A stretch of DNA of 64,000 nt from Actinomycetota bacterium. GTDB taxonomy: Bacteria > Actinomycetota > Coriobacteriia > Anaerosomatales > D1FN1-002. The first letter of the stretch is position 1. Each line of letters opens with the position of its first letter. The DNA is taken from assembly GCA_037445995.1 (NCBI GenBank), contig JBBIJK010000004.1, positions 30,451 through 94,450 of the forward strand, read 5' to 3'. Position numbers and translations under genes: made by a program. The notes beneath the pieces were generated by a model, which saw only the letters and a list, made by a program, of their open reading frames with translations, was not told where the DNA came from and ran no database searches. Positions 2,547 through 37,560 of the stretch are shown here, piece by piece.

Positions 2547-2554
2547 GAGGAGAG

Positions 2555-3484: not shown

Positions 3485-3487
3485 GGC

Positions 3488-4354: not shown

Positions 4355-4369
4355 ACGGAGGCGACACAG

Positions 4370-5119: not shown

Positions 5120-5126
5120 TCGCCAG

Positions 5127-8116: not shown

Positions 8117-8149
8117 GCATCTGGCACCCTCACGGAGGAGGTCCCGACG

Positions 8150-8410
8150 ATGTGTCTAGCGATCCCGGCCAAGATAGTGTCCATCGGAGAGCTGAACATG
8201 GCCGAAGTGGACATCTTGGGCGTGTCACGCCACGTGAGCCTCGACATGACACCTGAAGCGAAAGTCGGCGAGTTCGTGCTGGTACACGCCGGCTTCTCCA
8301 TCCAGGTCGTGGACGAGGCCTACGCCCAGGAGACCCTTGAGACCCTCAAGCAGCTCGACATCGTCGGGGACGAGATCGGGCCCCCTGACGCCGCCGAGAG
8401 CGACGCGTGA
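8150..8410 (+). CDS. hypC: Hydrogenase assembly chaperone HypC/HupF
   Basis: MCLAIPAKIV N-terminus (essential Cys2), 86 aa, RBS GGAGGAGG upstream. Confidence 0.9.
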   Translation: MCLAIPAKIVSIGELNMAEVDILGVSRHVSLDMTPEAKVGEFVLVHAGFSIQVVDEAYAQETLETLKQLDIVGDEIGPPDAAESDA

Positions 8411-8414
8411 CGCG

Positions 8415-9509: not shown

Positions 9510-9550
9510 CGGCCCCGACCAGTCCCGCCGGCTTGGGAAAAGGAGTCAAC

Positions 9551-15192: not shown

Positions 15193-15572
15193 GCCTGCGC
15201 CCCCTCTCGCGCCGTGAGATCGGCCTCGGCCTTGTCGGCCATCTTGTTCAGGCGCTCGTCAAGACTGTCGGCCTGCTTGGAGTACATCCATGCCATGACC
15301 CACAGGAACACGTAGTACAGCAGGGAAACGACCATCCAGTTCGGGGTGAACCCCTTGCCCGTGCCCGCGTACCACCACTCGGATGTCACGGTGAGCGCGG
15401 GTATCGCGAGCGTCACGGCGAAGAACACGAAGCCGTACGCGAAGCTGAGCTTGCGCTGCTCGTGGAAGACCGCGTCGACCGTCTCGACCGTGTCGATGTG
15501 GTCGCCGTACTTGACGTACTTGACGCCGTTGATCGTGCCGCTCTCGTAATCCTGGCTCGTCATCCTGTGCAC
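15189..15572 (-). CDS. Small two-TM membrane protein, DUF485/YjcH-like partner of the symporter
   Basis: 127 aa with two hydrophobic helices and a C-terminal ...MYSKQADSLDERL resembling the DUF485 tail. 4-nt overlap with the symporter start; RBS AAGAGGAGGTG. Confidence 0.6.
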   Translation of the reverse strand: MHRMTSQDYESGTINGVKYVKYGDHIDTVETVDAVFHEQRKLSFAYGFVFFAVTLAIPALTVTSEWWYAGTGKGFTPNWMVVSLLYYVFLWVMAWMYSKQADSLDERLNKMADKAEADLTAREGAQA

Positions 15573-15660
15573 CTCCTCTTGCTGTGCCGGGGGCCGCCTG
15601 CCGGCCCGGTGTCTGTATCTTTCTTGTCGCTGCGTCTTTCAGTGTCCGGTCAGGCGGCCG

Positions 15661-16155
15661 CTAGTCGGCCTTGACGACCAGGACCGGGATGGGCGAGGCC
15701 TTCACGACGGCCTCGGCAACGCTGCCCAGCGCGATGCGCTTGAGGCCGGTGCGGCCGGTGTCGCCCATGACTATCATGTCGGCGCCCCACTCCTGCGCGG
15801 TGCCGACGATACGCTTTGCGACGCCGCCGAGGACGACCTCCGCCTCGCAATCGACGCCGTTGCGCTCGGCCATGGTCTTGGCGAGCACCAGGCCCTTGAT
15901 CGAGGGGTGGACGCCCTGGTAAAGGTCGTCGTCCATTACCTCCTCGGGAAGCTCCAGCTTCTCGAGTCCGGTGTCCACGAAGATGGCCTTGAGCTTGGCA
16001 CCGAACGTCTTCGCCATGATGACCGCGTGCTCGGTGGCGACGACGGACGGTTCCGACCCGTCGGTGGGCACGAGGATCTTCTCGACCTCGACGCACACCT
16101 CCTGGATGTCGCCGAGCCTCACCTCGTCGGCTGCACCCGTGATGCAGACCTTCAT
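15661..16155 (-). CDS. Universal stress protein (UspA family)
   Basis: ...ILVPTDGSE..., ...ADMIVMGDTGRTGLKRIALGSVAEAVV (ATP-binding G-2x-G-9x-G-S/T). ATG 16155 is preceded by GGGAGGTG. Confidence 0.8.
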   Translation of the reverse strand: MKVCITGAADEVRLGDIQEVCVEVEKILVPTDGSEPSVVATEHAVIMAKTFGAKLKAIFVDTGLEKLELPEEVMDDDLYQGVHPSIKGLVLAKTMAERNGVDCEAEVVLGGVAKRIVGTAQEWGADMIVMGDTGRTGLKRIALGSVAEAVVKASPIPVLVVKAD

Positions 16156-16330
16156 GCGATTCACCTCCCTGTCCGGTGTGGCGGGGCGGTGCACACGCCC
16201 CACGGAGTGCACGGTCTGCGCGCTTCTCCAAGAAGAATCCTCCGGCAGGGACCGGCCCGTGGGAACGCGGCCGCCGCGTACGGGGGCGCAACCTCGGTGA
16301 GAGGCGGCGGCGAGGGGGCGAACGGCGGGG

Positions 16331-16783
16331 CTAGAGGCGGTGGATACGGGCCCTGACCGTTCCGTCGGGCCCTATGTCCACCATCGCCACAGAGGGCGAT
16401 TCGCCGCGAGGGGCGACGGGCGAGCCGGGGTTCACGTAGAGAACGGCTCCGAGACGCACGACGCAGGCCTGGTGGGTATGTCCCGCGATGACGACAGCGT
16501 CGCTCATGGCGGCCAGGTTGTCGCCGCCGGGGGGAGAATGCGTGACGCTGAGCGAGACGCCGCCCGCGTCGACACGCCTGGAGTCAGGCAGGAAGGCCGT
16601 CTCTCCCTGATCGGTGTTGCCTCGCACCGCGACGACCGGTGCGATGGCCCCCACCTCTGTCAGGACATCCAAGCTGCCGACGTCGCCGGCGTGCACGATC
16701 AGGTCGACGCCGTCGAAGAGGCGCATCACCTCAGCCGGCAGCGGGTGCCCGTGCGTGTCCGATATGACGCCGATCCGGAACAC
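16331..16783 (-). CDS. YfcE/MJ0936-type metallophosphoesterase
   Basis: MFRIGVISDTHG..., ...HAGD..., ...GNTD..., ...GHTH... metal-ligand motifs. Confidence 0.8.
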   Translation of the reverse strand: MFRIGVISDTHGHPLPAEVMRLFDGVDLIVHAGDVGSLDVLTEVGAIAPVVAVRGNTDQGETAFLPDSRRVDAGGVSLSVTHSPPGGDNLAAMSDAVVIAGHTHQACVVRLGAVLYVNPGSPVAPRGESPSVAMVDIGPDGTVRARIHRL

Positions 16784-16795
16784 CGCCGCTCCGGC

Positions 16796-17503
16796 TCAGA
16801 TGCCCAGCGCGCGCTTGAGCGACGGAACGCGCCGGCGCGAGACCGGCACCTGGCTGGCGTCCTTGTCCTTGAGCGTGAGAAGGAGCGTGCCCCCGTACAT
16901 CGGCACCACCTCGCTGACGTGCGAGAGGTTGACAAGGAAGCGCCTGTGCACCCTGAAGAAGCCACGAGAGCCCAGACGCGTCTCCAGCTGAGCCAGGGAG
17001 GTGGTGGACAGATATCTCTCACCGTCCGTGTACAGGTAGGAGTAGTCGTCCTTTGCCATCACGTAGAAGATGTCCCCCACTTCAAGGAGCAGCTTCTTAC
17101 CCGCCTTCTCAACCGGTATCCGCTCGAAGCGCGCCGCGGGCTCGGAGGGGCCGACCCGCTCGATGGCCTGTCTGAGGCGGGGGATCTCGACGGGCTTGAC
17201 CAGGTAGTCCACCGCCGCGACCTCGAAGGCCTTCACGGCGTGCTCGCTGTGCGCGGTCACGAAGACCACGGAGGGCGGGTGCTCCATGTTCGCGATCAGT
17301 TCGGCGAACTGGACCCCGGACAGGCCGGGCATGTCGATATCTAGGAACACTACGTCGTAGGGGACCACCTTGATCAGCTGCAGGGCCTCCAGCGCGTCGG
17401 AAGCCTCACCCAGCACCTCCACGCCGCCGGCCTCGCCCAACAGGTACCGCAGCTCGGAACGCGCGGGCGCCTCGTCATCCACGATCAGTGCCTTCATCGG
17501 CAT
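16796..17503 (-). CDS. LytR/AlgR-family response regulator (REC + LytTR DNA-binding domain)
   Basis: REC domain (ALIVDDE...DVVFLDIDMPGLSG) and a C-terminal LytTR-like region (...FFRVHRRFLVNLSHV...). Confidence 0.9.
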   Translation of the reverse strand: MPMKALIVDDEAPARSELRYLLGEAGGVEVLGEASDALEALQLIKVVPYDVVFLDIDMPGLSGVQFAELIANMEHPPSVVFVTAHSEHAVKAFEVAAVDYLVKPVEIPRLRQAIERVGPSEPAARFERIPVEKAGKKLLLEVGDIFYVMAKDDYSYLYTDGERYLSTTSLAQLETRLGSRGFFRVHRRFLVNLSHVSEVVPMYGGTLLLTLKDKDASQVPVSRRRVPSLKRALGI

Positions 17504-18822
17504 GGCGTTCCCGCCTCGCCCGCCCGGTCCGCGGAGAAGATGTCCATCGTGATCTCCGTGCCCTCCCCTTCTACGCTGGCCACCGACAGACCTGAGCCCT
17601 TTCCGAAGTGACCACGCAGTCTATCGTCCACGTTCTTGAGCGCGATGCCTAGCCCCTTGCCGAAACCAGGCTCCAGCACCCGCGGCAGAACGGCGGCGGG
17701 AATCCCGACACCGTCGTCGGTCACCGAGACCCGCAAGCCGTTCTCGCACCGCGTCGCGGCGATCGTGATGGTCAGCCTTCGCCCTGTGGGCAACGCATGC
17801 TGGACGCAGTTCTCCACGACCGGCTGAAGAAGGAAGGAGGGGACGACGGCGTCGAGCGCGGCTGACTCCACGGACTCGATAACCTGGAGCCGGGGACCGA
17901 AGCGTGCGTGCTCGAAGCGAAGGTAGCTTCTGGTGAACTCCAGCTCCCGCTCGAGGGTGACCAGGGGGCCCGAACTCTCCAGCGTCCTGCGATAGAAGGA
18001 AGCGAACTCGCGCAGGAGCACGCGCGCCTCGGTGGGGTCGGTGCGGATGAGGCTGGCTATCGTGTTTATGGTGTTGAACAGGAAGTGCGGGTGTATCTGC
18101 GCCTGGAGCGCCTGGAGTTCCATGCGCGTGGCCAGCGCTGTCTGGCGGTCCAGCTCGGACAGTTCAAGCTGCGTCGACAGCAGCGTGGCGAGGCCCTGCG
18201 CGGTCGTCACCTGCGTCTCGTTGAGAAGGCGGGGGGTCGTGTAGTAGAACTTGAGCGTCCCCGCCGGGACGCCCCGAACCACCAGTGGGACGACTATCGC
18301 CGCCTTGAGCAGGCACCGCTCCAGCGGGCACCCGATCTCTTGCTTGCTGACCAGGATGCGATGCTCCACGGACTCCAGGGCCTCGCGTGTCGCCCTCGTG
18401 ATGATGGGCCGCCCGGGCAGGTGGTGCTCCTGGCCCAGCCCGGCGAACCCGAGGACACGGGTCGTGTCGGTGATCGCCACCGCCGCCGCCTCCATCTCCC
18501 TGAGCGCGATGTCGCACACCGCCTGGGCGGTATCGGCATCGAGGCCGCGCCTCATGTGCGCGAGGCTGCGATTGGCGATCTCGAGGATCCTGTGGGACTG
18601 CTCGGCCTGGATATGGTCAGGGCGCGTCAGGAAGCGGGCCGCCAGTGAACCGACCGAGATGATGGTCAGGCCCCCGAGCGCGGCAGTGACGACGTACTCG
18701 GGGACGGGCATCACAAGTGCAACCACGGCGGTAAGCGCGATGGCGGTGACGGTCACCGCTATCAAGGCGTCGATCACGACCGCCTGCACCGTGAAGAACC
18801 TCTGTCCCGACCGCTCCCTCAC
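17494..18822 (-). CDS. LytS/YehU-type sensor histidine kinase (2 TM + GAF + His_kinase + HATPase)
   Basis: The IHPHFLFNTINTI H-box is typical of the LytS family, with a GAF-like segment upstream and a C-terminal GxGxG ATPase (DDGVGI...GKGLGIAL). It overlaps the RR gene by 10 nt. GTG start follows GGAGGGA. Confidence 0.85.
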   Translation of the reverse strand: MRERSGQRFFTVQAVVIDALIAVTVTAIALTAVVALVMPVPEYVVTAALGGLTIISVGSLAARFLTRPDHIQAEQSHRILEIANRSLAHMRRGLDADTAQAVCDIALREMEAAAVAITDTTRVLGFAGLGQEHHLPGRPIITRATREALESVEHRILVSKQEIGCPLERCLLKAAIVVPLVVRGVPAGTLKFYYTTPRLLNETQVTTAQGLATLLSTQLELSELDRQTALATRMELQALQAQIHPHFLFNTINTIASLIRTDPTEARVLLREFASFYRRTLESSGPLVTLERELEFTRSYLRFEHARFGPRLQVIESVESAALDAVVPSFLLQPVVENCVQHALPTGRRLTITIAATRCENGLRVSVTDDGVGIPAAVLPRVLEPGFGKGLGIALKNVDDRLRGHFGKGSGLSVASVEGEGTEITMDIFSADRAGEAGTPCR

Positions 18823-18943: not shown

Positions 18944-19690
18944 TCAGCCAGCCAGGCGGCTGACCAGCAACCACGCGCCGACCGCCGCGAACAAGCCCGC
19001 GAGCAGGCCGCGGATGAGGCGCTCGTCGACACGGTGGGCGATGGCGGCCCCCGCCAACGCGCCCGGGAGCGTCCCGGCGGCAAGCGGTCCGGCTAACGCC
19101 CAGGAGATCTCGCCGACCCATGCGTGCATCAACGCCGACGGCGCCGCGAGGAACGGGATCGCCGCGAGACTGGTGCCCACCGCGCGGCCGGTTGGCATCC
19201 CGAGGAAGCGTCTGAAGACCGGGACCATCAGGAAGCCGCCACCCACCCCGACCAGTCCCGCGATCAGGCCGGCCGCCGCGCCGGCCGCGGCTGGCGCGGC
19301 GAGCTTGAGGGGCCCCTTGGACGCCGCGGACGGCGGGCGTTCCAGGGCCGTCATCGAGACCGCCGACCAGAGCAGGACGACCCCCAGAGCGAGGGCAACA
19401 ACGTCGTCACCCAATCGGTCCCCGAGCAACGAACCGACGGCGCCGGTACCCGACCCCGACAACCCGGCGATACACGCCACCCGGACGTCTACCTTCCCGG
19501 CGCGATGATGGGCCAGCGCGCCGGCCAACGCGGCTGGCAGCACGGCCGCGAGCGAGGTGCCCACCGCCGCAAGCGCACCGAGTCCGATACCGAGATAAAG
19601 GGCCGGGGTGAGGACGATCCCGCCGCCAATCCCCAGCATCCCCGACAGCACGCCGGCCAAGACGCCGAGGGCGACGACGCCGACCGCCAT
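18944..19690 (-). CDS. TauE/SafE (TSUP) family anion permease
   Basis: 248 aa with repeated GxGGG motifs (GMLGIGGGIV, GLVGVGGGFL), 7-8 TM. Confidence 0.8.
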   Translation of the reverse strand: MAVGVVALGVLAGVLSGMLGIGGGIVLTPALYLGIGLGALAAVGTSLAAVLPAALAGALAHHRAGKVDVRVACIAGLSGSGTGAVGSLLGDRLGDDVVALALGVVLLWSAVSMTALERPPSAASKGPLKLAAPAAAGAAAGLIAGLVGVGGGFLMVPVFRRFLGMPTGRAVGTSLAAIPFLAAPSALMHAWVGEISWALAGPLAAGTLPGALAGAAIAHRVDERLIRGLLAGLFAAVGAWLLVSRLAG

Positions 19691-19694
19691 CGCC

Positions 19695-20936
19695 TCAGCC
19701 GGAGCCGACGGGCGGGAACCGGCCGGTGATCGCCGACCGGTCCACGCTGCGCTCTCCGGTGAACAGCGTCTTGAGGGGCACGTCGTCCCAGACGCGCTCC
19801 ATCATGATCGGCCACCGCCGCTGGAACTCGAAGTAGTTGTCGCAGTTGCGCGTCGCGTACCTGGGCGCGTCTTTGCGGACCGCCTTGGCCACCTTGCGGT
19901 AGGTCTGGCGCTCAGCGCCCGCCGACAGGCTCCTGAGCATCGCGGTGACCCAGGCGCGCCACCCGACGGAGCCGCCTATGAACTCGCCCGGGAAGGGCGC
20001 CACGGACTCAGGGGAGACGGGACGGAGGTCCACCTGGGACTTCGCGAACTCCAGCTTCCGGTGCTCGTAGATGAACCTGTAGGCGTCCTGGCGAAGGCGT
20101 ATGGCCTCGCTGGGGCCGATCGGCGGCCTGTGGACCACCCTCCAGTCTCCGTCCATGAACACGTCGCCGCCGTGCATTCGCACGTTGATGACGTAGTCGA
20201 TGTCCTCGCCCCTCGTGACCCAAGGGTCGAACGACACGCTGCGGTACATGTCTTTGTGGATCACGAGGCAGCCGCCGAAGGCCACGTTGCTCGGCTTGAT
20301 CCTCGGGGGGGCGTCGACCACGGCGAGCGCCTGGTTGTACGCGTCGGCGGTGTGCCAGAAGGTGTTGGACCAGTGCGGGTCCTGGTGGACCTGGTACCGG
20401 CCATCCTCGTTGACGTAGTAGCCGGTCTTGGCCAGGATCCGGCCGTCCCCGTGCCGCTCCCCGACGCCGGCCATCGCTCTTTCAAGGAAGTCCGGGTCGG
20501 CGATCACCTGGTCGTCGTCCACGAACAGGACCGACTCCGACCCCAGCACCGCGGCGGTGAGAAGGCCGACGTTGCGGACCGCGCCGTAGCCGTGGAGCGA
20601 GACACCCGGGATCATGTCCGCGAACTCCAGTTGCTCGAGGCGACGGTGAAGCGACCCGATCTCCGCGGCCCCGAAGACAAGGGCGTCTATCTGCGGGAAG
20701 TCGGCTACCATCTCGCGGACGCGATCCTCCGCCTGGTGCTCGATGGAGGGCTCGGTGGCCGCGGTGAGGACCACGACCCGCTCGAGCCCGGGCAGCCCCG
20801 CGAGAGACCGCAGGCAATCAGGCAGGGTGCTCTCGCCGTCGATCGGCGTCGGATGGTCGTAGACGTCCAGCAGACGCCTGCCCAGCCGCGCCCGCCGCCT
20901 GGTCCAGAATGTAGAGATCACCACGCAGGGCGCCAA
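19695..20936 (-). CDS. GT-A fold (family-2-like) glycosyltransferase with C-terminal extension
   Basis: ...YGAVRNVGLL..., FVDDDQV (DxD), ...GGCLVIHKDMY..., ...GEDIDYVINV.... TTG start 20936 after GAGGAG. 4-nt gap to the TauE gene. Confidence 0.55.
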   Translation of the reverse strand: MAPCVVISTFWTRRRARLGRRLLDVYDHPTPIDGESTLPDCLRSLAGLPGLERVVVLTAATEPSIEHQAEDRVREMVADFPQIDALVFGAAEIGSLHRRLEQLEFADMIPGVSLHGYGAVRNVGLLTAAVLGSESVLFVDDDQVIADPDFLERAMAGVGERHGDGRILAKTGYYVNEDGRYQVHQDPHWSNTFWHTADAYNQALAVVDAPPRIKPSNVAFGGCLVIHKDMYRSVSFDPWVTRGEDIDYVINVRMHGGDVFMDGDWRVVHRPPIGPSEAIRLRQDAYRFIYEHRKLEFAKSQVDLRPVSPESVAPFPGEFIGGSVGWRAWVTAMLRSLSAGAERQTYRKVAKAVRKDAPRYATRNCDNYFEFQRRWPIMMERVWDDVPLKTLFTGERSVDRSAITGRFPPVGSG

Positions 20937-21014
20937 TTGGACTCCTCACAAGTGCCATCCGGTCAGGGCCGCGCCCGCGCGCGGGCCGGACCCACGACAT
21001 TCTATCGCTTCAAC

Positions 21015-21032
21015 GCGGCTGGCAGCAGCCGC
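21015..21032 (-). terminator. Hairpin terminating the queT-to-dsbA-like unit
   Basis: GCGGCUG-cugc-CAGCCGC, a 7-bp perfect stem starting 8 nt after the stop at 21040. No strong U-tract. Confidence 0.45.
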
Positions 21033-21039
21033 TCCCGTC

Positions 21040-21726
21040 TCACTGCTTCGGTCCGTCAGACGCCGCGCCGCGACCCGTGTCGCCCGGGGCGGCGACGCAG
21101 CGGTCCACGGCCGCCTGCATCACCTCGTAGGGACGGGCGCCGATGAGGAGCTCGTTGCAGATGACGGCCGCGGGCGTGGCGTCGATCCCCATGTGTTCCG
21201 CCACGTGGCGAAACACTTCGAGCCGCTCCTCGTGAAGACCGCCGACCCACGCCGCCTCGACCGCTGCGGCGTCCAGGCCTTCCAGGCCCTTCGCCAGCCC
21301 GAGGAGGACCTCACGGTCCCCGATGTCCGCCCCGTCGGCGTAGTAGGCGCTGAAGATCGCCATGTGGGTCGCCCAGTGGAGTGCCGACCCGCCATCCCTC
21401 GCGACCTCGCCCATGAGAAGCGCCAGGTGCGTGTTGGGGATGTGATCGGGGAGCGTCATCTTCACCCCCTCGTCCGCAGCCACACGGACCAGGTGCCCCT
21501 CGACCCTGTCGGAGTGCCCGAGGCCGTGCTCGACGGCGGAGAAGCCCTCGGCTGGCATACCAGGCCTGAGCTCGAACGGCACGAGCAGGAGCTCGAGGTC
21601 GTTCGCTGCCCGCAACCTGTCGAACCGGAACTGGTCGACGTAGCAGAAGGGTCAAGCGTAGTCGAAGAAGAGCAGCACCCTGGGCCGGTCGATCGACGCG
21701 CCGCTCGGACTCGCGTGAAGATCCAT
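21040..21726 (-). CDS. DsbA/FrnE-family thiol-disulfide oxidoreductase, candidate selenoprotein (in-frame TGA 21652..21654 read as Sec; U-P-F-C redox motif)
   Basis: ATG 21726 (AGGGAG 7 nt upstream) reads MDLHASPSGASIDRPRVLLFFDYA-TGA-PFCYVDQFRFDRLRAAN... It continues in frame into ORF-track ORF 21040..21615. The TGA replaces the first Cys of the DsbA CxxC motif, and a SECIS-like hairpin follows. Confidence 0.7.
21619..21639 (-). promoter_or_regulatory. Putative bacterial SECIS element
   Basis: Hairpin GUCGACC-AGUUCC-GGUUCGAC starting 12 nt after the UGA: 7 bp with one bulged U on the 3' arm and a 6-nt apical loop with G at position 2. Confidence 0.55.
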
Positions 21727-21730
21727 GTCC

Positions 21731-22741
21731 CTACTCCCTGATCCCGAGATCCGCGCCGCAGGCCGAGCAGATCCCGCCCGAGGTCCGCTTCGCAACCACC
21801 GAGTACCCGCGCCGCGTCACGGCCGTGGCCCCGCACGATGGACAAACCGTGTCCTCGAACCCACCGTCCGCCACATTCCCAAGGTACACGAAGCGCAACC
21901 CCTCACCTGTGGCGAGCTCCCGCGCCCGCCATAGGGTCTCGAACGGGGTCGCGGGTACGTGCGCCATGTCCAGGCACGGAAAGAACCTGGTGACGTGCCA
22001 CGGGGTGTCCTCCCCCAAAGCGTCCCTTATCCAGCCGGCGATGCCGCGGATCTCCGCTTCGCCATCGTTGATGCCAGGGACGACATTGGTGACGACCTCC
22101 ACGTGCATACCCCAGTGGTGCTTCGCGCGGACCGCCGCATCCAGCACCGGCCGCGCCGACGGCACCTTGCACAGCTCGTGGTAGCCTCGGTCGTCGAAAG
22201 CCTTGACGTCGACGCGCCAGACGTCCACCAGGGGACCGAGCAGGTCCAGAGCCTCGGGCGTGACGTATCCGTTCGTTACCATGACGGTGAAGAGGCCCTC
22301 ACCGCGGCAGATGGTGGCGACATCCAGCACGTACTCGAGCCAGATCACAGGCTCGTTGTAGGTGAAAGCCACGCCCGGGCATCGGTGCGCCCTCGCCAAG
22401 CGGACGGCGCCGTCGGGGTCCATGTGCCCGGCGTCCGGCACGTCTCCGGGGGCCGCTCGGCTGATCGACCAGTTCTGACAGTGACCGCACCTCATCGAGC
22501 AGCCCACGCTGCCTAGCGACAGCACCCGTGCTCCTGGGTGGTAGTGGAATACCGGCTTCTTCTCTATCGGGTCCGCCGCCACCGACGTGACGAGGCCGTA
22601 GGACAGGGGCTCCAGGACCCCGCCGGAGTTGCGCCTGACCCCACATCGGCCGACGTGCCCGTCAGCGATCAGGCAGCGGTGCGGGCAGACGGCGCATCTG
22701 ACCTTGCCAGCCTCGCCGGACCACAGCAGCGCCTCACGCAC
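21731..22741 (-). CDS. Radical SAM enzyme, AmmeMemoRadiSam/PflA-like activase type
   Basis: N-terminal Cys cluster (RCAVCPHRCLIADGHVGRCGVRRN), DPIEKKP, the CSMRCGHCQNW CxxxCxxC SAM cluster motif, and a C-terminal Zn-ribbon (CPSCG...CSACG). Confidence 0.85.
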   Translation of the reverse strand: MREALLWSGEAGKVRCAVCPHRCLIADGHVGRCGVRRNSGGVLEPLSYGLVTSVAADPIEKKPVFHYHPGARVLSLGSVGCSMRCGHCQNWSISRAAPGDVPDAGHMDPDGAVRLARAHRCPGVAFTYNEPVIWLEYVLDVATICRGEGLFTVMVTNGYVTPEALDLLGPLVDVWRVDVKAFDDRGYHELCKVPSARPVLDAAVRAKHHWGMHVEVVTNVVPGINDGEAEIRGIAGWIRDALGEDTPWHVTRFFPCLDMAHVPATPFETLWRARELATGEGLRFVYLGNVADGGFEDTVCPSCGATAVTRRGYSVVAKRTSGGICSACGADLGIRE

Positions 22742-22749
22742 ACGTCCCC

Positions 22750-24582
22750 CTAATCCGGCGCGATCTCCACCCTGTCTCGCCCGTTCTCCTTCGCGCGATA
22801 AAGGGCCCTGTCAGCGGCCTCCAGCAGGCGGTCCGGCTCGACCCCGGCACCAGAGATGGCGGAGACGCCGACGGAGAGGGTGACCCGCGACACTCCGTCC
22901 GCCCCGCTGCCCCCGACACTGATCGCCCGAACCGCGCTCCTCAGCTTCTCGGCCACCGCGAACGCGGCCGTCTTGCCTATCCCGGGAAGGAGCACCCCGA
23001 ACTCATCCCCCCCATACCTTGAGGGGAGGTCGGTCCCTCTGAGCACCTTGGGGATGATCGCTCCGATGGACCGCAACACCGAGTCGCCGACCCGGTGGCC
23101 ATACGTGTCGTTGATCCCCTTGAACGCGTCCACGTCGACCATGAGCAGCGAGAGCTCTCCACCGTAGCGGTTGACCCGCTCGACCTCCTCCCTGAGCCGC
23201 GCCTCGAACTCACGGCGGTTCGGCAGCCCTGTCAGCGGGTCGGTGGTGGCGGCCTCCGCGAGCGCCGCGAGGCTAGCCTCCAGGCGCTCGGCTTGGCGAG
23301 GCCAGCACATGTCCCACGTCGACCTGCCCTGCGCGATCGCGACAGCGTGATCGGCGCAGGTTCTCTGGCCGCACGCGCCGCAGTCCAAGGCCTCATCCCG
23401 GGACGCCACGCCGCCCTCCGCGAGGATACGGTCGACCTCCTCAGGCGAAGGAACGACCGTCATCACCGGCGAAGCCGTGAACGAGCGGCGAAGGTCCGGC
23501 CGGGGGAGATAGGCCAAGAGGCGTCGGCATCCCACCGACGCCGCGGACCTCGACGCCTCGCCGTGGGCGACCGCGATGGTGCGCTTGGCGTGCACCGATA
23601 GCTGTGGGGCCACAGTGGGGCCGTCGATACACCCGTCGCAGTGCAACGTGTCGACCAGCGACGGGGCAGCCTCGCCGTCTGCGATGGCGTCCAAGAGGCG
23701 GTCGAGTGGCTCCAGACCGCGCACCACGGCCGTGTCCACCCGCGAGTCCCCCCCGCACTCCACGAACGAGCGCGGAAACCCGTCCGTCAGCGACACCTCC
23801 TTGAGCGGCGCGGGCCGGCGAGCGCCAGGCGGCTCGACGCCGGGCGCGAGCGGCGGCGCGTCCGCCAGGAGTTCCTCGAGCTCAGCGAAGTCGATCGCGG
23901 CGTCGACCGCGCCCCCGTACTGCGGATCGGAGCAGTCGTCCTTGCGGGCGAAGCACGGACTCACGTACACGACGACCGTGCCTTCGGGATAGAGCGACTT
24001 CACGAGCTTGGCTTGCGCGATGTAAGGGGGGACCAGGGGCACGAGGGCGCCGGTCAGCTTGGGGTGGAAGCGAAGGACCCACGACACGACCACCGGGCAT
24101 GTCGACCTGATGGCGGGCATGTGCTCCCGGCCCACCACCAGACGCTCGAACTCGGATGCGACCATCTCCTCGCCGAGCAAGGTGGTCTCGACGGCGTGGA
24201 AGCCCATCGCCTCGAGCGCGCACTCTAAGTCGCGTGTCGTCTTGGGATGCAGAGCTGCGACCGCCTCCGTCGCGAGGACGGCGACCACCGGTCCGCCGCC
24301 GTGGAGCAGCGCCCGGACCGCGGCGGTGTCATCCCTGACCACATGGCCGCGAAAGCCGCACTCCTTGACGCACGCCCCGCAGGAAACGCATCTCTCGTGG
24401 ATCACGAGCGTCCCGGCCTCGGAGACGCCGATCGCGCCGGCGGGGCAAACCCGGACGCAGCCACGGCATCGACGGCAGTCGTCCTCCTGGTGCTGTATCA
24501 GCCGGCGGCCGACATGCCTGCGCGTCGACCCGGACCGGGACACCGGCTCCGAATCACCCCAAGGCAGCGGCTCGCTGCTCAC
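22750..24582 (-). CDS. Fusion protein: 2x[4Fe-4S] ferredoxin + [FeFe]-hydrogenase-like (H-cluster/Nar1-type) domain + CxxCGxxxC Fe-S domain + GGDEF diguanylate cyclase
   Basis: CRRCRGCVRVCP / CVSCGACVKEC ferredoxin motifs. H-domain motif equivalents are RSTCPVVVSW (L1), VSPCFARKDD (L2) and LHCDGCIDGP (L3), followed by DCGACGQRTCADHA. The C-terminal GGDEF has RYGGDEFGVLL. GTG start overlaps the queT-like stop (GTGA). Confidence 0.8.
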   Translation of the reverse strand: MSSEPLPWGDSEPVSRSGSTRRHVGRRLIQHQEDDCRRCRGCVRVCPAGAIGVSEAGTLVIHERCVSCGACVKECGFRGHVVRDDTAAVRALLHGGGPVVAVLATEAVAALHPKTTRDLECALEAMGFHAVETTLLGEEMVASEFERLVVGREHMPAIRSTCPVVVSWVLRFHPKLTGALVPLVPPYIAQAKLVKSLYPEGTVVVYVSPCFARKDDCSDPQYGGAVDAAIDFAELEELLADAPPLAPGVEPPGARRPAPLKEVSLTDGFPRSFVECGGDSRVDTAVVRGLEPLDRLLDAIADGEAAPSLVDTLHCDGCIDGPTVAPQLSVHAKRTIAVAHGEASRSAASVGCRRLLAYLPRPDLRRSFTASPVMTVVPSPEEVDRILAEGGVASRDEALDCGACGQRTCADHAVAIAQGRSTWDMCWPRQAERLEASLAALAEAATTDPLTGLPNRREFEARLREEVERVNRYGGELSLLMVDVDAFKGINDTYGHRVGDSVLRSIGAIIPKVLRGTDLPSRYGGDEFGVLLPGIGKTAAFAVAEKLRSAVRAISVGGSGADGVSRVTLSVGVSAISGAGVEPDRLLEAADRALYRAKENGRDRVEIAPD

Positions 24583-25145
24583 CCGTCCCTCGACATCCCC
24601 TCGAACACCCCGGCCAAGCCGGTGCGACGCATCGCCGCGAGCAGCGGCCAGCCCAATCCGTAGACGACGAGAACCTGACCCGCGCCTACAGCGGCCATGC
24701 CGAGAAGGTACATCGCGAACCAGGAGTCCTCAAGCCTCCAGCCAAGCGCCGGTATGTCGTAAAAGCCGCTGCCAGCCAGGATAAGGGGCAGGTACGCTGG
24801 CACTATCAGGGCGTTGGCCACGACCGGCCCGGCGAGCGCCACGCCCGTGCGGCCTCGCATCCGCCAGCTCCAGGCGGCGCCCGCCAGCGACCCGAGCGGG
24901 CCGAAGACCATGTCCAGCCAGCCCATGGGCTGCGAGAGGTTCCACGCGTTGGCTATCAGCGCCCCGAGCCACAGCCCGGGGATCGCGGCGGGCGTCACGC
25001 ACCCCAGCACTGTGAGCGCCTCGCTGATCCGAAGCTGGACGGGCCCCCAGGCCAGGGCCTGGAACGTGGAGAGCGTGAGAAGCGTGGCGGCGGCGTAGAG
25101 GGCCGCGATCACTCCGGCCTGTGCGACGAGACGTGAGGCGCGCAA
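24579..25145 (-). CDS. QueT-family (ECF S-component-like) membrane transporter
   Basis: 188 aa, about 5-6 TM. AALYAAATLL...GPVQLRISEALTVL...IPGLWLGALIAN matches QueT-family hallmarks as I remember them. TTG start after GGAGA. Confidence 0.7.
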   Translation of the reverse strand: MRASRLVAQAGVIAALYAAATLLTLSTFQALAWGPVQLRISEALTVLGCVTPAAIPGLWLGALIANAWNLSQPMGWLDMVFGPLGSLAGAAWSWRMRGRTGVALAGPVVANALIVPAYLPLILAGSGFYDIPALGWRLEDSWFAMYLLGMAAVGAGQVLVVYGLGWPLLAAMRRTGLAGVFEGMSRDG

Positions 25146-25181
25146 GGTCTGTCTCCGGGGAACGGCTGGGCGGGCGGGCGC

Positions 25182-25193
25182 ATTCTAGCACAC
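25182..25193 (-). promoter_or_regulatory. Extended -10 promoter element (GTG-c-TAGAAT) upstream of the queT-like gene
   Basis: Minus strand reads TGTGTGCTAGAATG about 37 nt upstream of the TTG start. The perfect palindrome GGCTCCGGAGCC (25195-25206) lies just upstream in the spacer/-35 region. Confidence 0.4.
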
Positions 25194-25210
25194 AGGCTCC
25201 GGAGCCCCGC

Positions 25211-27334
25211 TCACATCGGGAGCCGCCGCTCCTCTCGCCGGTCCACCGCGAGCAACCCTGTCATGCCCGCTGCCACCTGGGCGTCGAGGATCCTCGACAT
25301 CGCCGCCACCACAGCCGGGTCGAACTGGCTGCCGGCGCCCCGCTCGAGCTCGGCGCGGGCGGCCATGGGAGGCAGCGCGGCCCTGTAAGCGGAATCGCTG
25401 GTCATGGAGTCGTAGGCGTCGGCGACCGCCAGGATCCTCGCGGCCAGCGGGATGTCCTCGCCCGTAAGTCTCATCGGGTACCCTTCGCCGTCCCATCGCT
25501 CGTGGTGGTGCAGGACGATCGGTGCGACGGCATTCAGGAACTCGACCTGCTCAAGGAGGCTGGCGCCGATCTGGCTGTGCATCATCACCCGGTCCATCTC
25601 ACCCTCGGAGAGCTTCGAGGGCTTGAGGAGGATCTCCTCGGAGACGCCCACCTTGCCGATGTCGTGGAGCAGCCCGGCGAAACGCAACGCCTCGACCTCC
25701 TCGAAGACAAGGCCAATCTCCTCCCCCAGCGCGACAGCGTAGTCCATGACCCGCTTGGAGTGACCGGCCTCGCGGCGCTCGCTGGCGTCCAAGGCCGTCG
25801 AGAGGGCGGCCAGCGCCCGGGTGTAGTCGTCACGCAGTCGCCCGAACAGCGCCGCCCGATCGAGCGCCGGCCCCACCTGAGCCGACATCTGCCACAGCAG
25901 CCGCTCGACCGACGCGTCGAAATCTCCGGGCCGGTCCGACGCGACGAACAGTGCGCCGATGCCGACGTCGCGTACGGTCAGCGGCACCGAGAGCACGGTC
26001 CACTCCTCGCACACACGCTCGTCGCCCAGGAGAAGGTCGCCCTCCCGGACGACGACGCGGGCAGTGGGCGCCGACGGCACGATCGCGACCCCTGAGGCCT
26101 CCTCTGTGACGGCCGCAATGTCGTGAGCGCCGACGTCGCCGCGCGCGAACAGGGACGCGCACTCCTGCGCGTGACCCGAGAGGACGATCCCGCCGATACG
26201 CAGGTCCACGCTCTTCTCCAGGACCTCGCCCACCAGCCTCACCACGTCCTCAGCGGCGACGTCCCCCTGCAGCAGGCGGGCCAGCTCGACCAGGCTGGCG
26301 GTCCTTGCGAACTCCCGTTCGCCAGCCGCCATCGCAGCGCCAAACCGCAACCCTGGGCCGACGAGCTTGGCGAACTCCTCGATCGCGTCGACGACCCGGC
26401 CTTGGACCGGACCGACTTCCCGGGGGAACGACAGCTCGAAGACCCCCGTGAGCGAATCGCCGTCGAACACAGGCGAGCACAACGAAGCGCCCTCGCTCGG
26501 GTCCATGCCGGAAGCCACCACGACCGAACGCCCGGTCGCGGCCGCGTGACCGGCCGGCCCCTCGCCGACGCGGGAGAGCGAGCCGACGGTACCGGAGGGC
26601 CTGCCGCCCGACGCGGCGACCACCTCCAGCAGGTCCGAGCCCGGCCTGCGAACCCTCAGGGTCCCGCCTTCCGCTCCGACCAGAGCGATCGCGAGGGCTA
26701 AGGCGCCAAGGCCGGCCTGCTCCCCGGCCAGCTCCCCATCGACGAGCGCGCGGAAGGCCGACGACGTCGCGGCGACGGCTCTGCCGGCGGCGAGAGCCGC
26801 CTCGCGGTCCCGCGCAGCCGCGATCGTGGCCGCGGCATGCGTCGCCACCATGAAGGCGATCGAAGCCGCCCGCTTGTGGCTGATGACAGGCACCGAAACC
26901 AGCGCCTGTCGGGCCTGCGCTTCGCTGGCTCCGCGAGCCAGCAGCTGCTCGAAGAGCCGACGCCGCTCGCGAGTGGATGTGACGAAGCCCGCGATGACGA
27001 CGTGAAGTTCCGGATCGGCGCCCTCGACCCGCTGGAAGTAACACGCGAAGCCCGATCGGCAGAAGCTCCTCCAGGAGTCGCCAGCCGCCCAAGGCGGGGC
27101 GTCGAAGCACTCCGAGACGACCTCGGGCCTGGAGTCGCCGGGGTGCAGGGTGTGGCAGTACGGCCCGCGCGGTCCCGAGTGCACGAACATCCCCGCAGCC
27201 AGATCCGCGACCGCCACGCTGACACCCATGGTGTCGAAGAGCGTCTCCGTCCAGACACGCCAGTCATCCGACCGGAACATCGAGATGTGCTGGCGCTCTT
27301 CGGGCGGCAACGTTCCTCCTCGCAGGGCGGGCAT
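25211..27334 (-). CDS. Cys-rich (PocR-like?) sensor + 2x GAF + HD-GYP c-di-GMP phosphodiesterase
   Basis: HD-GYP motifs LLHDIGKVGV and HHHERWDGEGYP. Two GAF-like segments. The N-terminal ~170 aa have conserved Cys (YCHTLH, SFCRSGFACYF). Confidence 0.83.
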   Translation of the reverse strand: MPALRGGTLPPEERQHISMFRSDDWRVWTETLFDTMGVSVAVADLAAGMFVHSGPRGPYCHTLHPGDSRPEVVSECFDAPPWAAGDSWRSFCRSGFACYFQRVEGADPELHVVIAGFVTSTRERRRLFEQLLARGASEAQARQALVSVPVISHKRAASIAFMVATHAAATIAAARDREAALAAGRAVAATSSAFRALVDGELAGEQAGLGALALAIALVGAEGGTLRVRRPGSDLLEVVAASGGRPSGTVGSLSRVGEGPAGHAAATGRSVVVASGMDPSEGASLCSPVFDGDSLTGVFELSFPREVGPVQGRVVDAIEEFAKLVGPGLRFGAAMAAGEREFARTASLVELARLLQGDVAAEDVVRLVGEVLEKSVDLRIGGIVLSGHAQECASLFARGDVGAHDIAAVTEEASGVAIVPSAPTARVVVREGDLLLGDERVCEEWTVLSVPLTVRDVGIGALFVASDRPGDFDASVERLLWQMSAQVGPALDRAALFGRLRDDYTRALAALSTALDASERREAGHSKRVMDYAVALGEEIGLVFEEVEALRFAGLLHDIGKVGVSEEILLKPSKLSEGEMDRVMMHSQIGASLLEQVEFLNAVAPIVLHHHERWDGEGYPMRLTGEDIPLAARILAVADAYDSMTSDSAYRAALPPMAARAELERGAGSQFDPAVVAAMSRILDAQVAAGMTGLLAVDRREERRLPM

Positions 27335-27388: not shown

Positions 27389-28870
27389 TCAGGGACGACC
27401 TCGTGGAAGGCGCACGGTGAATGTGCTGCCGGAGCCTAGGGTGCTTCGCACCTCGATCTCGCCTCCGGCAGCCTCGATGATGCGCTTGGCGATGGCGAGC
27501 CCCAGGCCGAACCCGCCGGTCTCAGCCGAACGCGACGCGTCAGACCGATAGAACCTGTCGAAGATGTGGGGCAGGTCCTCGTCCGGGATCCCGGCGCCCG
27601 TGTCGCTCACCTCGACGAGCACGTGATCTCGCCTGCGGCGCGTCGTCACGCTCACCTGTCCGCCAGCCTGCGAGTACTTCGCGGCGTTGTCCACCAGAAT
27701 CGAGATCGCCTCCTCGACCCGGTCCGGGTCGCCCACCATCGCCAACTGACCTTCGCCCGGACCGATGAACTCGAGTTGTCTTCCCAGGTTGCGCGTCGCG
27801 GCGTCAGCCAGCACCTCGCGGCATCGGGCGTTGACGTCGAAGCGCACGCTGCGGAACTCCGTCTCCCGATCGCCGCGAACGAGAGACAGCAGCTCCGCGC
27901 AGAGCCTGGCCATCCGCCTGGACTCCCTGTCGATGGCTCCTACCGCCTCGTCACGCAGAGCGGGGTCCTCAGCCCCCCAGACCCTGAGTATGTTGACGTA
28001 GCCACGGATGCCCGCGACCGGGGTGGCCAGCTCGTGCGAGGCATCCGCCACGAACCGCGCCTGCGCCTCCGCCCGCCGGTCGAGCTTGCGGATCACCTCG
28101 TTGATCGAGCGGGCCAGGTCACCGACCTCGTTGTCACCGACCTCGGGGAGGCGCACCTCCGGCTCCCCCGCCTGGATCGAATCCGCCGCCTTGCGGAGTA
28201 CTTCCACCAGGCCCAGCACCCACGCCGCCCCGCTCTGCATGATGAACAGCGACAACATCGCCGCGATCACGGCGAGCAGGGTCATGGGCGCTCGCACGGA
28301 GTCGATAACCGCCTCCTCGCGGTGTGGCGAGTAGACGACGTCGAGCACCGCGGCTCCGGAAAAGGGCAGCTCGACCGGGATGTGCATCGCCAGGTCGCCC
28401 ATGTCCGCGGACCCGAGGAGTCCGGACAGGGGTCTGGCTCCGTACTGGGTCACGTCGCCCGACGCTCCCGCCGCAAGCACCCGTGCCCGTGCCGGGCCCG
28501 CTGGAAGCACATGGCCGTCCGTGGTGGACCACAGCAGCTCGCCGCTCGCGTCGTGCAAGGCGTAACCGGCCGCGCCGAGGGCCCCGGTAGAGTCAAGTTC
28601 GTCCAGCCCGTCCAGCAGGGCCTTCTCCACGGCGGCGGACGACGCCCCCGCGCCGGACGGGTCCGCAGCGACGCTCTCGCGCGCCATCTCGGTCCGCCGG
28701 TCGAAGGCGACCTTAGCCGGCACGGCGAGCTGGGCCACGCCGGCCTCCGCGGTGTCCCGCATCGCCTTGGTGACGACCAGGTAGGTGACCAACAGGATGG
28801 CCCCTACGAGCGCCGCGGAGAACGCCACGGACAGCCCGAGCAGGCGAATCTTCAGGGAGGTACGGTGCAT
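27389..28870 (-). CDS. Sensor histidine kinase (2 TM, periplasmic domain, HAMP, HisKA, HATPase_c)
   Basis: H-box FVADASHELATPVAGIRGY, N/G boxes (LVDNAAKYS, DTGAGI, GGFGLGLAIAK). Adjacent to an OmpR-type RR. Confidence 0.88.
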   Translation of the reverse strand: MHRTSLKIRLLGLSVAFSAALVGAILLVTYLVVTKAMRDTAEAGVAQLAVPAKVAFDRRTEMARESVAADPSGAGASSAAVEKALLDGLDELDSTGALGAAGYALHDASGELLWSTTDGHVLPAGPARARVLAAGASGDVTQYGARPLSGLLGSADMGDLAMHIPVELPFSGAAVLDVVYSPHREEAVIDSVRAPMTLLAVIAAMLSLFIMQSGAAWVLGLVEVLRKAADSIQAGEPEVRLPEVGDNEVGDLARSINEVIRKLDRRAEAQARFVADASHELATPVAGIRGYVNILRVWGAEDPALRDEAVGAIDRESRRMARLCAELLSLVRGDRETEFRSVRFDVNARCREVLADAATRNLGRQLEFIGPGEGQLAMVGDPDRVEEAISILVDNAAKYSQAGGQVSVTTRRRRDHVLVEVSDTGAGIPDEDLPHIFDRFYRSDASRSAETGGFGLGLAIAKRIIEAAGGEIEVRSTLGSGSTFTVRLPRGRP

Positions 28871-29551
28871 CTAGCCCCCCGCGAAGAAGTACCCGACCCC
28901 CCGGATCGTCTGGATCGTGCTGTTCTCGTGATCCCCTATCTTGCCGCGGAGGTGGCAGACGAACACCTCGATGACGTTGCTGTCGGTGGAGTGCTGACCT
29001 CCCCAGACAGCCGAGAGGATCTCGTCGCGAGAGATAACGCGACCGGCGTTGGCCACGAGGAAGAAGAGCAGGTCGAACTCCTTGGCCGTCAGGTCGAGCT
29101 GCTGCTCTCCCAAGGTCGCGCGTCGGTTGACCAGGTCCACGGTCACGCCGGAGGCGGAGTACTCCGTACGCTCCCTGCCCTTCTCCGTTCGTCGCAGGAG
29201 GGCCGCCACTCGAGAGAGCAGCTCGGGCATCTCGAAGGGCTTGCGCAGGTAGTCGTCGGCACCGGCGTCGAACCCGCTGACGAGGTCCTCGAGCTGCGCG
29301 CGAGCCGTCAACATCAGTATCGGCACCTCGGGGTCGGCCTCGGTCATGTTACGGGCGACCTCCAGGCCGTCCATCCCGGGCAGCATAAGGTCGAGTATCA
29401 CGACGTCCGGCCTGCTCTGATTGAAAGCCTCCAGCCCGGCTGGGCCGTCTCCGGCGTGCGTCACGTCGTAGCCCGCGTGTCTGAGCTCGAGTTCGACGAA
29501 CCGAGCGATCGTGCTGTCGTCCTCGACGACCAGTATCTGCGCCTCAGGCAC
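28871..29551 (-). CDS. OmpR/PhoB-family response regulator
   Basis: REC (ILVVEDDSTIA...VVILDLMLPGMDG) + winged-helix (LTAKEFDLLFFLV...IQTIRGVGYFF). GTG 29551 is chosen; the 363-aa ORF-track version carries an Arg/Gly-rich upstream extension that is implausible for an OmpR-family regulator. Confidence 0.88.
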   Translation of the reverse strand: MPEAQILVVEDDSTIARFVELELRHAGYDVTHAGDGPAGLEAFNQSRPDVVILDLMLPGMDGLEVARNMTEADPEVPILMLTARAQLEDLVSGFDAGADDYLRKPFEMPELLSRVAALLRRTEKGRERTEYSASGVTVDLVNRRATLGEQQLDLTAKEFDLLFFLVANAGRVISRDEILSAVWGGQHSTDSNVIEVFVCHLRGKIGDHENSTIQTIRGVGYFFAGG

Positions 29552-29589
29552 CAGAGAATCCCTTCGCCTTGGCCCCGCCCCTGCCGATT

Positions 29590-34500: not shown

Positions 34501-34550
34501 CAGGCCCTTCCGTCGACTGCGGGGTTGTGTCAGAGGACCGTCCGCGCCCG

Positions 34551-34560
34551 ATTCTAGCAC
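34551..34560 (-). promoter_or_regulatory. Extended -10 element GTGCTAGAAT upstream of the HAMP-GAF-HD-GYP gene
   Basis: The same 10-mer as at 25182-25191. It sits about 50 nt upstream of ATG 34500. Confidence 0.4.
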
Positions 34561-37430: not shown

Positions 37431-37560
37431 CGCTCGCGGTCGGCAGGCGCCCCCGGACGAGCCCCGAGCACCCGGCAGAGGACGCTTATGGCTGCTTCCT
37501 CCCGGATCTGACCAGGTTCACGACTTACCGCCGCCCGGGGCCCGACCGGGAGCGCCTCGC
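37431..37560 (-). ncRNA. ffs: Signal recognition particle RNA (4.5S/SRP RNA); boundaries approximate
   Basis: Minus strand contains CCUGGUCAGAUCCGGGAGGAAGCAGCC (cf. E. coli 4.5S ACCAGGUCAGGUCCGGAAGGAAGCAGCC) with a GNRA tetraloop GGGA. Closing helices are GCCCCGGGC/GCUCGGGGC and CGCUCCCGGUCGG/CCGACCGCGAGCG. It occupies the classic position upstream of dnaX. Confidence 0.8.

Follow-up and report, generated by a model that had tools for sequence, protein, structure and literature searches.

Groups C and D of the [FeFe]-hydrogenases hold putative sensory proteins, and their role as sensors is still argued. The hallmarks of group D (M2e), as seen in TamHydS from Thermoanaerobacter mathranii, are two N-terminal [4Fe-4S] motifs, a Cx2Cx4Cx16C motif, a non-conserved C299, replacement of M353 by Ser or Thr and of M497 by Leu, and absence of a PAS domain (PMC8163306). 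TamHydS does bind a [2Fe] subcluster and is reactive towards H2 (PMC8163306), and in the papers on this protein the way in which group D passes on a signal is called unknown (PMC8163306, PMC13104023). Group C (M2f) proteins, i.e., HydS of Thermotoga maritima and the HydDB subtypes C1-C3, have a Fer4/H-domain/FeS input coupled to signalling outputs (PMC5037454). HydDB connects its sensory [FeFe] subtypes with kinases, chemotaxis proteins or phosphatases, and gives a class linked (putatively) to a diguanylate cyclase for [NiFe] group 2c only (PMC5037454). Here we describe a locus in a 64,000 nucleotide (nt) stretch of contig JBBIJK010000004.1 (assembly GCA_037445995.1; "the window", in whose positions all coordinates are given), where a group D-like hydrogenase module is fused to a GGDEF domain within a predicted operon of four minus-strand genes (21040-25206). 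Putative sensory [FeFe]-hydrogenases and a DsbA-like selenoprotein family are known already; the candidate novelty is the GGDEF-fused [FeFe]-type sensor in this operon. The four genes, in reading order, are:

24579..25145, minus strand: QueT-family energy-coupling factor (ECF) S-component-like membrane protein, 188 amino acids (aa), TTG start (PF06177)
22750..24582, minus strand: sensor diguanylate cyclase, 610 aa, GTG start (Pfam domain matches); domain order: two [4Fe-4S] ferredoxin-like motifs, [FeFe]-hydrogenase H-domain-like, Cx2Cx4Cx16C cluster domain, GGDEF
21731..22741, minus strand: AmrS-type radical S-adenosylmethionine (SAM) enzyme, 336 aa, GTG start (TIGR04337, PF04055)
21040..21726, minus strand: cytoplasmic DsbA/FrnE-like thiol oxidoreductase, 228 aa including selenocysteine (Sec), U-P-F-C active site (PF01323)

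The stop codon of the QueT-like gene and the GTG start of the sensor gene overlap in the sequence GTGA. The sensor stop and the radical SAM GTG are 8 nt apart, and 4 nt lie between the radical SAM stop and the DsbA-like ATG. These junctions were pointed out in an earlier note on this DNA, and a re-reading of the coordinates finds all of them as described. The family assignments made there were examined by profile hidden Markov model (HMM) searches and are borne out for all four genes. The QueT-like protein matches PF06177 with 112 bits (cut-off 33.7; E=3e-32) over profile positions 1-140 of 141. The sensor displays a Fer4 dicluster, Fe_hyd_lg_C (PF02906, E=2e-27), the FeS domain PF04060 and GGDEF (E=2e-44). 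The radical SAM protein scores 304.5 bits against TIGR04337, with a cut-off of 220, and also matches PF04055, and the DsbA-like protein matches the DSBA domain PF01323 (E=1e-21). Co-transcription of the four genes is very probable. A literature search yielded no description of a system that combines a QueT-like protein, a hydrogenase-like GGDEF sensor, a radical SAM enzyme and a DsbA-like protein, in agreement with the note, whose author knew of no described system of this kind.

Alignment of the sensor to solved hydrogenases places three motifs, RSTCP, SPCFARKDD and LHCDGCIDG, at the H-site. The correspondence with the CpI hydrogenase is as follows:

L1, TSCCP in CpI, RSTCP in the sensor: the proton-relay residue C299 is Thr, and the ligand C300 is retained
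L2, MPCxxKK in CpI, SPCFARK in the sensor: M353 is Ser and K358 is Arg
L3, MxCxxGC in CpI, LHCDGC in the sensor: M497 is Leu

The four H-cluster cysteines (CpI C300, C355, C499 and C503) are invariant in 120 sensor orthologues and in 118 diverse relatives. A regular-expression search detects the Cx2Cx4Cx16C motif in 120/120 orthologues, and a Pfam search of the sensor shows no match to a PAS domain. The GGDEF domain carries the signature RYGGDEF with an RxxD I-site, RGTD, five residues upstream, and the GGDEF motif is present in 111 of the 120 orthologues. Judged by these motif hallmarks, the predicted protein shows the features published for the "putative sensory" [FeFe]-hydrogenases of group D (M2e). 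An iron-sulfur (Fe-S) or H-cluster-type input wired to cyclic di-GMP (c-di-GMP) synthesis, as proposed in the note, is upheld to the extent that H-domain, FeS domain and GGDEF are found on one polypeptide.

The sensor shares with TamHydS the two [4Fe-4S] motifs, the four H-cluster cysteines, a Thr or non-conserved residue at C299, Ser353, Leu497, the Cx2Cx4Cx16C motif and the lack of PAS. However TamHydS has no fused output, whereas GGDEF is fused here; and the present sensor differs in having Arg at K358, Thr/Glu at P231/S232, and no adjacent catalytic hydrogenase gene. The group C HydS proteins have the same type of input module, but the sensor lacks PAS and has Ser instead of Gly at M353. 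For [NiFe] group 2c a like scheme is proposed, with H2 sensing leading to c-di-GMP, but neither the metal centre nor the protein family is related, and the cyclase is a separate linked gene, in contrast to the single fused polypeptide found here.

The N-terminal 440 residues of the sensor were used to search for relatives, and 339 cluster representatives were found at E<1e-30, of which 72 diverse ones were scanned with Pfam. The H-domain is present in all 72, the FeS domain in 69. Their outputs are HisKA/HATPase (29-31), PAS (18), GGDEF (14) and sigma-54 activator (8). Thus the Fer4/H-domain/FeS module is a general signalling input that is joined to varied outputs, and GGDEF fusion is one recurrent form. 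Full-text literature searches revealed no description of a GGDEF-linked [FeFe] type.

Orthologues of the sensor form a pool of >120 clusters with 52-69% identity, nearly all from Coriobacteriia or "Actinobacteria" metagenome-assembled genomes (MAGs). With each GTDB species represented by a single genome, scanning gave 111 sensor relatives, and the best 80 loci are all from Anaerosomatales-type Coriobacteriia. The presence of neighbours in these 80 species loci was scored by tblastn with the window proteins. Of the assessable loci, 79/79 have QueT as the gene immediately preceding the sensor, and in 77/78 the gene immediately following it is that of the radical SAM enzyme. The DsbA-like gene is present in about 40 of ~76 loci and is absent from 36 that have the other genes intact; thus it is not an obligatory maturation factor. 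Median distances over the 80 loci are -7 nt for QueT to sensor, 11 nt for sensor to radical SAM and 20 nt for radical SAM to DsbA. The next gene follows the DsbA-like gene at a median of 84 nt, or the radical SAM gene at 120 nt when the DsbA-like gene is absent. In the unit downstream, which consists of a GT-A-like and a TauE gene, the median distance is 12 nt. The stop/start overlaps and gaps of ~10 nt are kept even where sensor identity is ~50%. The gene-neighbourhood check suggested in the note therefore has a positive outcome, with the same order and tight spacing recurring beyond chance in 80 species-level genomes. Important is that the side upstream of the operon is rearranged among species: the HD-GYP and histidine kinase genes swap positions and other genes are inserted, while QueT-sensor-radical SAM is unbroken in 77 of 78 loci. 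The tight spacing, and the confinement of rearrangements to the outside of the core, are stronger evidence than gene order.

Sequences at both ends of the gene set were inspected for signals that could delimit a transcription unit:

25182..25194, minus strand: promoter-like element of the extended -10 type, TGTGTGCTAGAAT, lying 36 nt before the TTG start of QueT
25196..25207, no strand assigned: palindrome GGCTCCGGAGCC, directly after the stop codon of the upstream HD-GYP gene, with no T-run behind it
21015..21032, minus strand: 7-bp GC-rich hairpin, 7 nt past the DsbA-like stop codon, without a U-tract
20999..21006, minus strand: -10-like sequence GATAGAAT of the next transcription unit (GT-A-like and TauE genes), identified as a cross-species motif

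Scans of 20700-25500 for sigma-70 two-hexamer promoters and intrinsic terminators gave no call, and cross-species conservation of motifs was used instead. The pattern TGnTA[GC]A[AC]T, mostly in the form TGCTAGAATCC, is found 29-75 nt upstream of QueT in 29/77 species loci, compared with 0.7% of random 120-nt windows; the conserved consensus is TGnTAGAATCC. The promoter-like element reported in the note is thus supported by species comparison, although not by the sigma-70 scan, and its end is at 25194 rather than 25193. On the downstream side, GnTAnnAT occurs 50-70 nt upstream of the GT-A-like gene in 64/72 species loci, compared with 2.7% of random windows. The hairpin lies in an intergenic spacer of conserved length (median 84 nt). 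Its 7 bp are as previously noted, but the gap to the last stop codon is 7 nt and not 8; it has no T-run and was not called by the terminator scan. Rfam searches at the gathering threshold for the window, and at a permissive threshold for 20850-25350, showed no preQ1, c-di-GMP or other riboswitch and only chance-level matches. The stretch from the -10 to the GT-A-like gene was considered as a structured 5′ leader, an idea that was dropped (mean z = -0.26 relative to shuffles).

Two alternative operon heads are displayed among species when loci L009-L088 are compared with the window. One has the HD-GYP gene followed by a spacer with TGCTAGAATCC. In the other, where no HD-GYP gene intervenes, the stop codon of a histidine kinase gene overlaps the QueT start; this type makes up about half of the species, and many loci without the QueT-proximal motif belong to it. 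Where the kinase gene runs into QueT, the unit is probably co-transcribed with the response regulator-histidine kinase pair. The gene comparisons support an operon-like unit with a putative conserved promoter-like element of its own and a conserved downstream boundary. The "self-contained" module envisaged in the note does not hold, as the kinase overlap is found in about half of the species and an HD-GYP phosphodiesterase is usually nearby.

The last gene of the set has an in-frame TGA, and two features characterise it:

21652..21654, minus strand: in-frame UGA read as Sec, codon 25, first position of the CxxC (context FFDYA-U-PFC)
21619..21639, minus strand: selenocysteine insertion sequence (SECIS)-like hairpin GUCGACC-AGUUCC-GGUUCGAC, in which a U is bulged and whose stem begins 12 nt past the UGA

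Among orthologues with a readable active site, the codon is TGA in 21 distinct ones and TGC or TGT in 15-16, with the coding sequence conserved on either side. The apical-loop nucleotides G24-U25 are present in 21/21 Sec forms and in 4/15 Cys forms (Fisher p=2e-6). Their position is within one nucleotide of G23-U24 in the E. coli fdhF SECIS. Stem pairing averages 6.2/7 in the Sec forms and 5.6/7 in the Cys forms (p=0.04), and it should be noted that conservation of the peptide VDQFRFD in part imposes the stem. The folding energy of the sequence after the UGA is no better than that of shuffles, nor does it tell Sec and Cys forms apart. Only the loop GU and the stem register do so. An ordinary stop codon, a pseudogene lesion or a sequencing error would agree with the behaviour of gene callers, which truncate the protein (172 aa in NCBI, 191 aa in Logan). 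However, the TGA occupies the codon that aligns with the catalytic Cys of other orthologues, in sequences as diverged as those of the 21, and is followed by a hairpin whose loop GU is invariant in the TGA forms. This explanation of the TGA has a negligible probability and is effectively refuted by the two comparisons. The DsbA-like gene almost certainly encodes a selenoprotein, as the note had proposed, and the alternation of codons among orthologues shows a genuine Sec/Cys-alternating family at the level of predicted proteins. A tRNA-Sec gene was looked for in the window and at 91 loci, and none was found.

Among solved structures, FrnE of Deinococcus radiodurans (PDB 5CP1) is the closest. 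The family "DsbA-like form 1, PF01323/COG2761, UxxC" has already been predicted as a selenoprotein family (PMC13188914, PMC1088965). The present protein has the same DSBA fold, a cytoplasmic FrnE-like architecture, Sec at the first Cys of the CxxC, and a bacterial SECIS-type hairpin after the UGA. It differs in being a clade-specific Coriobacteriia subfamily situated inside a signalling operon, and in that Sec and Cys alternate among close relatives. The words Coriobacter and Actinomycetota do not occur in the text of a 2026 selenoprotein review. Three Cys-form orthologues (loci L015, L018 and L025) have a complete Sec-type loop, CAGUUC[C/A]GG, and a fourth Cys form (L013) keeps only the loop G24-U25; these four may be recent Sec-to-Cys conversions. 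In a long-read assembly (L004) the DsbA-like gene has an apparent frameshift at 11100-11150 of that locus, probably an assembly error, and this explains the truncated gene call in that genome.

The radical SAM protein has the Cx3Cx2C motif (CSMRCGHC) and Cys-rich segments at its N- and C-terminus. Its orthologues in the clade are 60-71% identical and are named AmmeMemoRadiSam enzymes by NCBI. The nearest solved structure is pyruvate formate-lyase (PFL)-activating enzyme. The radical SAM protein shares the Cx3Cx2C motif with AmrS of the AmmeMemoRadiSam system and is well above the family cut-off. In contrast to that system, however, no AmrA (AMMECR1) or AmrB (Memo) gene is present within ~10 kb at any of the loci examined, and the gene is locked behind a sensor diguanylate cyclase. 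AMMECR1 and Memo were not detected in the Pfam-annotated neighbourhoods of 6 loci (~10 kb), and searching 91 loci (1.57 Mb) with rough motifs for the two gave only out-of-frame noise. The description "orphan" in the note is thus correct as to the missing partners, but the position is not remarkable since a lone amrS is also found elsewhere: the Segatella amrS adjoins amrB, whereas that of Trichlorobacter stands alone.

The QueT-like gene resembles queT of the Clostridioides difficile queK-queT-queL cluster in the full-length PF06177 match and in having a radical enzyme gene nearby. It differs from that cluster in the absence of a preQ1 riboswitch and of queuosine-pathway neighbours, in the radical SAM family, and in its translational coupling to the sensor or to a histidine kinase instead of to salvage enzymes. 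The annotated neighbourhoods contain no tgt, queK or other queuosine-pathway genes. As obligate co-transcribed partners of the sensor, the QueT-like and AmrS-type proteins appear to be confined to the Coriobacteriia clade.

The sensor protein is probably a redox- or H2-controlled diguanylate cyclase. This confidence is divided about evenly between true H2 sensing and redox sensing by Fe-S clusters only. In CpI, K358 and A230-P231-S232 hold the CN ligands of the [2Fe] subcluster. In the clade, K358 is replaced by Arg in 120/120 orthologues and A230-P231-S232 by A-[T/S]-E in 104/104 that are readable, whereas other sensory-type relatives keep K358 in 87/107 and APS in 75/107. With these residues replaced, the canonical [2Fe] subcluster may not bind, and binding of an H-cluster is uncertain. 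Likewise no second hydrogenase gene is found within 10 kb at any of the 80 loci, whereas one is present at ~22/45 distant sensor loci, and for cultured Anaerosomatales only [NiFe] hydrogenases and Hyp proteins are reported (PMC9686372). All these points count against H2 as the signal. They favour instead a degenerate hydrogenase-like sensor, in which an H-domain with only a [4Fe-4S] cluster, like that of the eukaryotic Nar1/NARF-type proteins, would inform the GGDEF domain of O2, NO or the redox state of the cell. This alternative is possible, if short of probable. It has to account for the retention of all four H-cluster cysteines, and for the fact that the M353 to Ser, M497 to Leu pattern is that of the [2Fe]-binding, H2-reactive TamHydS (PMC8163306). 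Moreover the isolates grow on H2 (PMC9686372), i.e., the lineage lives on the proposed signal, and the nikR, cbiMQO, hypF, hypD and hypE genes of the window likewise speak for an H2 context. Finally, Arg can still donate a hydrogen bond to a CN ligand, and the P231/S232 contacts to [2Fe] are made partly via the backbone. No hyd maturase genes are present in the 64-kb window.

The best overall explanation, which we consider rather likely, is a single transcription unit of a signalling island through which an Fe-S sensor controls c-di-GMP. Transcription would start at the conserved extended -10 or, in other species, arrive by read-through from the upstream response regulator and histidine kinase genes. 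The transcript would run from QueT-like through sensor and radical SAM to the DsbA/FrnE-like gene where this is present, and would end ahead of the separately promoted GT-A-like/TauE unit. The sensor is predicted to be a soluble Fe-S protein, with a [4Fe-4S] electron-relay pair feeding an H-domain-like site that has four ligating cysteines, and with the Cx2Cx4Cx16C cluster domain and a helical linker leading to a catalytically intact GGDEF. The redox state of the Fe-S chain would switch c-di-GMP synthesis; it would be set by H2 if the protein has a [2Fe] subcluster, and if not, by reductant or oxidants of the cell. Breakdown of the signal would fall to the neighbouring GAF-HD-GYP protein. The DsbA/FrnE-like protein, made by recoding of UGA to Sec via the SECIS-like hairpin, may serve as an optional redox accessory.

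Several observations weigh against the functional unity of this gene set, and they bear on how its members are to be connected. A block of ~20 kb is syntenic in the clade, with ask, asd, response regulator and histidine kinase genes on one side, and GT-A-like, TauE, GNAT, LytS-LytTR, metallophosphatase, Usp and DUF485-SSF genes on the other. Co-location is thus partly inheritance, and order by itself is weak evidence for shared function. At ~45 distant loci with the H-domain sensor module (a metagenome scan for distant GGDEF-linked sensors), no QueT, TIGR04337-like, DsbA-like, GT-A-like or TauE homologue is nearby; the association is therefore clade-specific. The mirror-tree comparison of nine block proteins gave partial correlations of 0.27 for sensor and radical SAM and 0.00 for sensor and QueT. 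It should be noted that LytS and LytTR, a known pair, reach merely 0.31, so that the method is not discriminating. In the same comparison the top partial correlation of the sensor is with the upstream histidine kinase (0.49). One locus, in a UBA912 MAG (L054), is the sole one cleanly without the radical SAM gene, and a TGA-containing DsbA-like gene there directly follows the sensor. To these is added the negative outcome of the promoter and terminator scans. The QueT-like, radical SAM and DsbA-like genes could accordingly be passengers that share a promoter with the sensor and have no mechanistic link to it, their order kept by synteny and operon inertia. The block order kept in all loci, the distant sensors, the optional DsbA-like gene and the QueT correlation of zero all agree with this, but the core has stayed intact where the upstream side was rearranged, and its overlaps and short gaps persist at low sensor identity. 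We regard the passenger explanation as rather unlikely.

The note offered as one, speculative, reading that the radical SAM and Sec-DsbA proteins mature the cofactor of the sensor or of a partner and that the QueT-like protein imports a precursor. The near-invariant adjacency and tight coupling in the clade and the atypical H-site are in line with this, and of the known H-cluster maturases, three in number, two belong to the radical SAM enzymes. However, the DsbA-like gene is dispensable in many species, the UBA912 locus keeps the sensor without the radical SAM gene, no such enzyme accompanies the distant sensors, and by its score the radical SAM protein is nothing but a usual member of TIGR04337, with 34-42% identity to amrS genes of unrelated contexts and replicons. 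With an optional DsbA-like gene and a clade-specific link, maturation as proposed is not borne out and is judged improbable. A related possibility is that the AmrS-type enzyme assembles or restores some non-canonical cofactor at the H-site, with help from the QueT-like protein and, where present, Sec-FrnE. An apparently [NiFe]-only lineage and the loss of K358 and P231/S232 provide a setting for such a role, which we nevertheless hold to be very improbable. Hardly less doubtful is a 7-deazapurine salvage pair, in which the QueT-like importer acts jointly with the radical SAM enzyme on a queuosine-type precursor, as do QueT and QueL, and the sensor is merely inserted. The QueT assignment is solid, the queK-queT-queL cluster with its radical enzyme is documented in C. 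difficile (bioRxiv 10.1101/2023.12.05.570228), and salvage of queuine is predicted for the majority of Actinomycetota (PMC11130926). On the other hand, the radical SAM protein is strong only to TIGR04337 with no queuosine-pathway family among its NCBIfam matches, the preQ1 riboswitch is absent at both Rfam thresholds, and the annotated neighbourhoods are devoid of queuosine genes.

Other genes in the window are in part members of the syntenic block:

25211..27334, minus strand: GAF-GAF-HD-GYP protein (HD_5 E=4e-35, and GAF domains)
27389..28870, minus strand: HAMP-HisKA histidine kinase (Pfam)
28871..29560, minus strand: OmpR-type response regulator (Pfam)
19695..20936, minus strand: GT-A-like protein, 413 aa (weak, sub-threshold Glyco_tranf_2_3 (GT2) match)
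18944..19690, minus strand: TauE-family membrane protein (TauE E=6e-48)
13345-18822, minus strand: LytS-type kinase/LytTR, then metallophosphatase, Usp, and DUF485 with SSF (ActP-like) transporter
2115-10558, plus strand: nikR, CbiM/CbiQ/CbiO-type Ni/Co ECF transporter, hypF, hypD and hypE (Pfam), 10-19 kb from the operon
37452-37547, minus strand: bacterial small signal recognition particle (SRP) RNA, the sole Rfam family above gathering score in the window

The GAF-GAF-HD-GYP protein is likely the c-di-GMP phosphodiesterase counterpart of the sensor, and an HD-GYP gene is adjacent or within ~6.5 kb in most species loci. Further c-di-GMP turnover proteins in the 64 kb, in addition to that at 25211-27334, are a HAMP-GAF-HD-GYP protein and a membrane GGDEF+HD-GYP protein (31957-34560 and 60525-63221). 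The window is an unusually dense c-di-GMP signalling region. The 413-aa GT-A-like protein, for which a PDB sequence search gave no relative, is the most conserved of the whole block, with 60-78% identity across species, and could be an output of c-di-GMP signalling. The GT-A-like/TauE unit is usually followed by a GNAT acetyltransferase gene. The LytS/LytTR-ActP genes form a separate carboxylate-sensing/uptake-type module, and since this module is syntenic with the operon in all species, synteny exceeds functional units. The presence of hypF, hypD and hypE indicates that the organism matures [NiFe] hydrogenases.

A group D-like module fused to GGDEF has a built-in enzymatic read-out, c-di-GMP synthesis, and thus the sensor hypothesis for these hydrogenases can be put to an in vitro test under H2, N2 and O2. 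Fusions of this kind are common, being found in >100 species here and in 14/72 diverse relatives. The Sec/Cys-alternating FrnE-like gene is a natural series for the study of Sec-to-Cys exchange and of SECIS constraints within a coding sequence. That an AmrS-type radical SAM gene and a QueT-like gene are so strictly coupled to a signalling protein is a lead for two families with poorly known roles. Should the non-canonical cofactor exist, it would represent a HydEFG-independent maturation route or a new Fe-S gas/redox sensor, and the AmmeMemoRadiSam radical SAM family would gain its first assigned function. If the sensor reading is true, H2 or redox status would be tied to c-di-GMP-controlled behaviour in subsurface Coriobacteriia (OPB41/Anaerosomatales).

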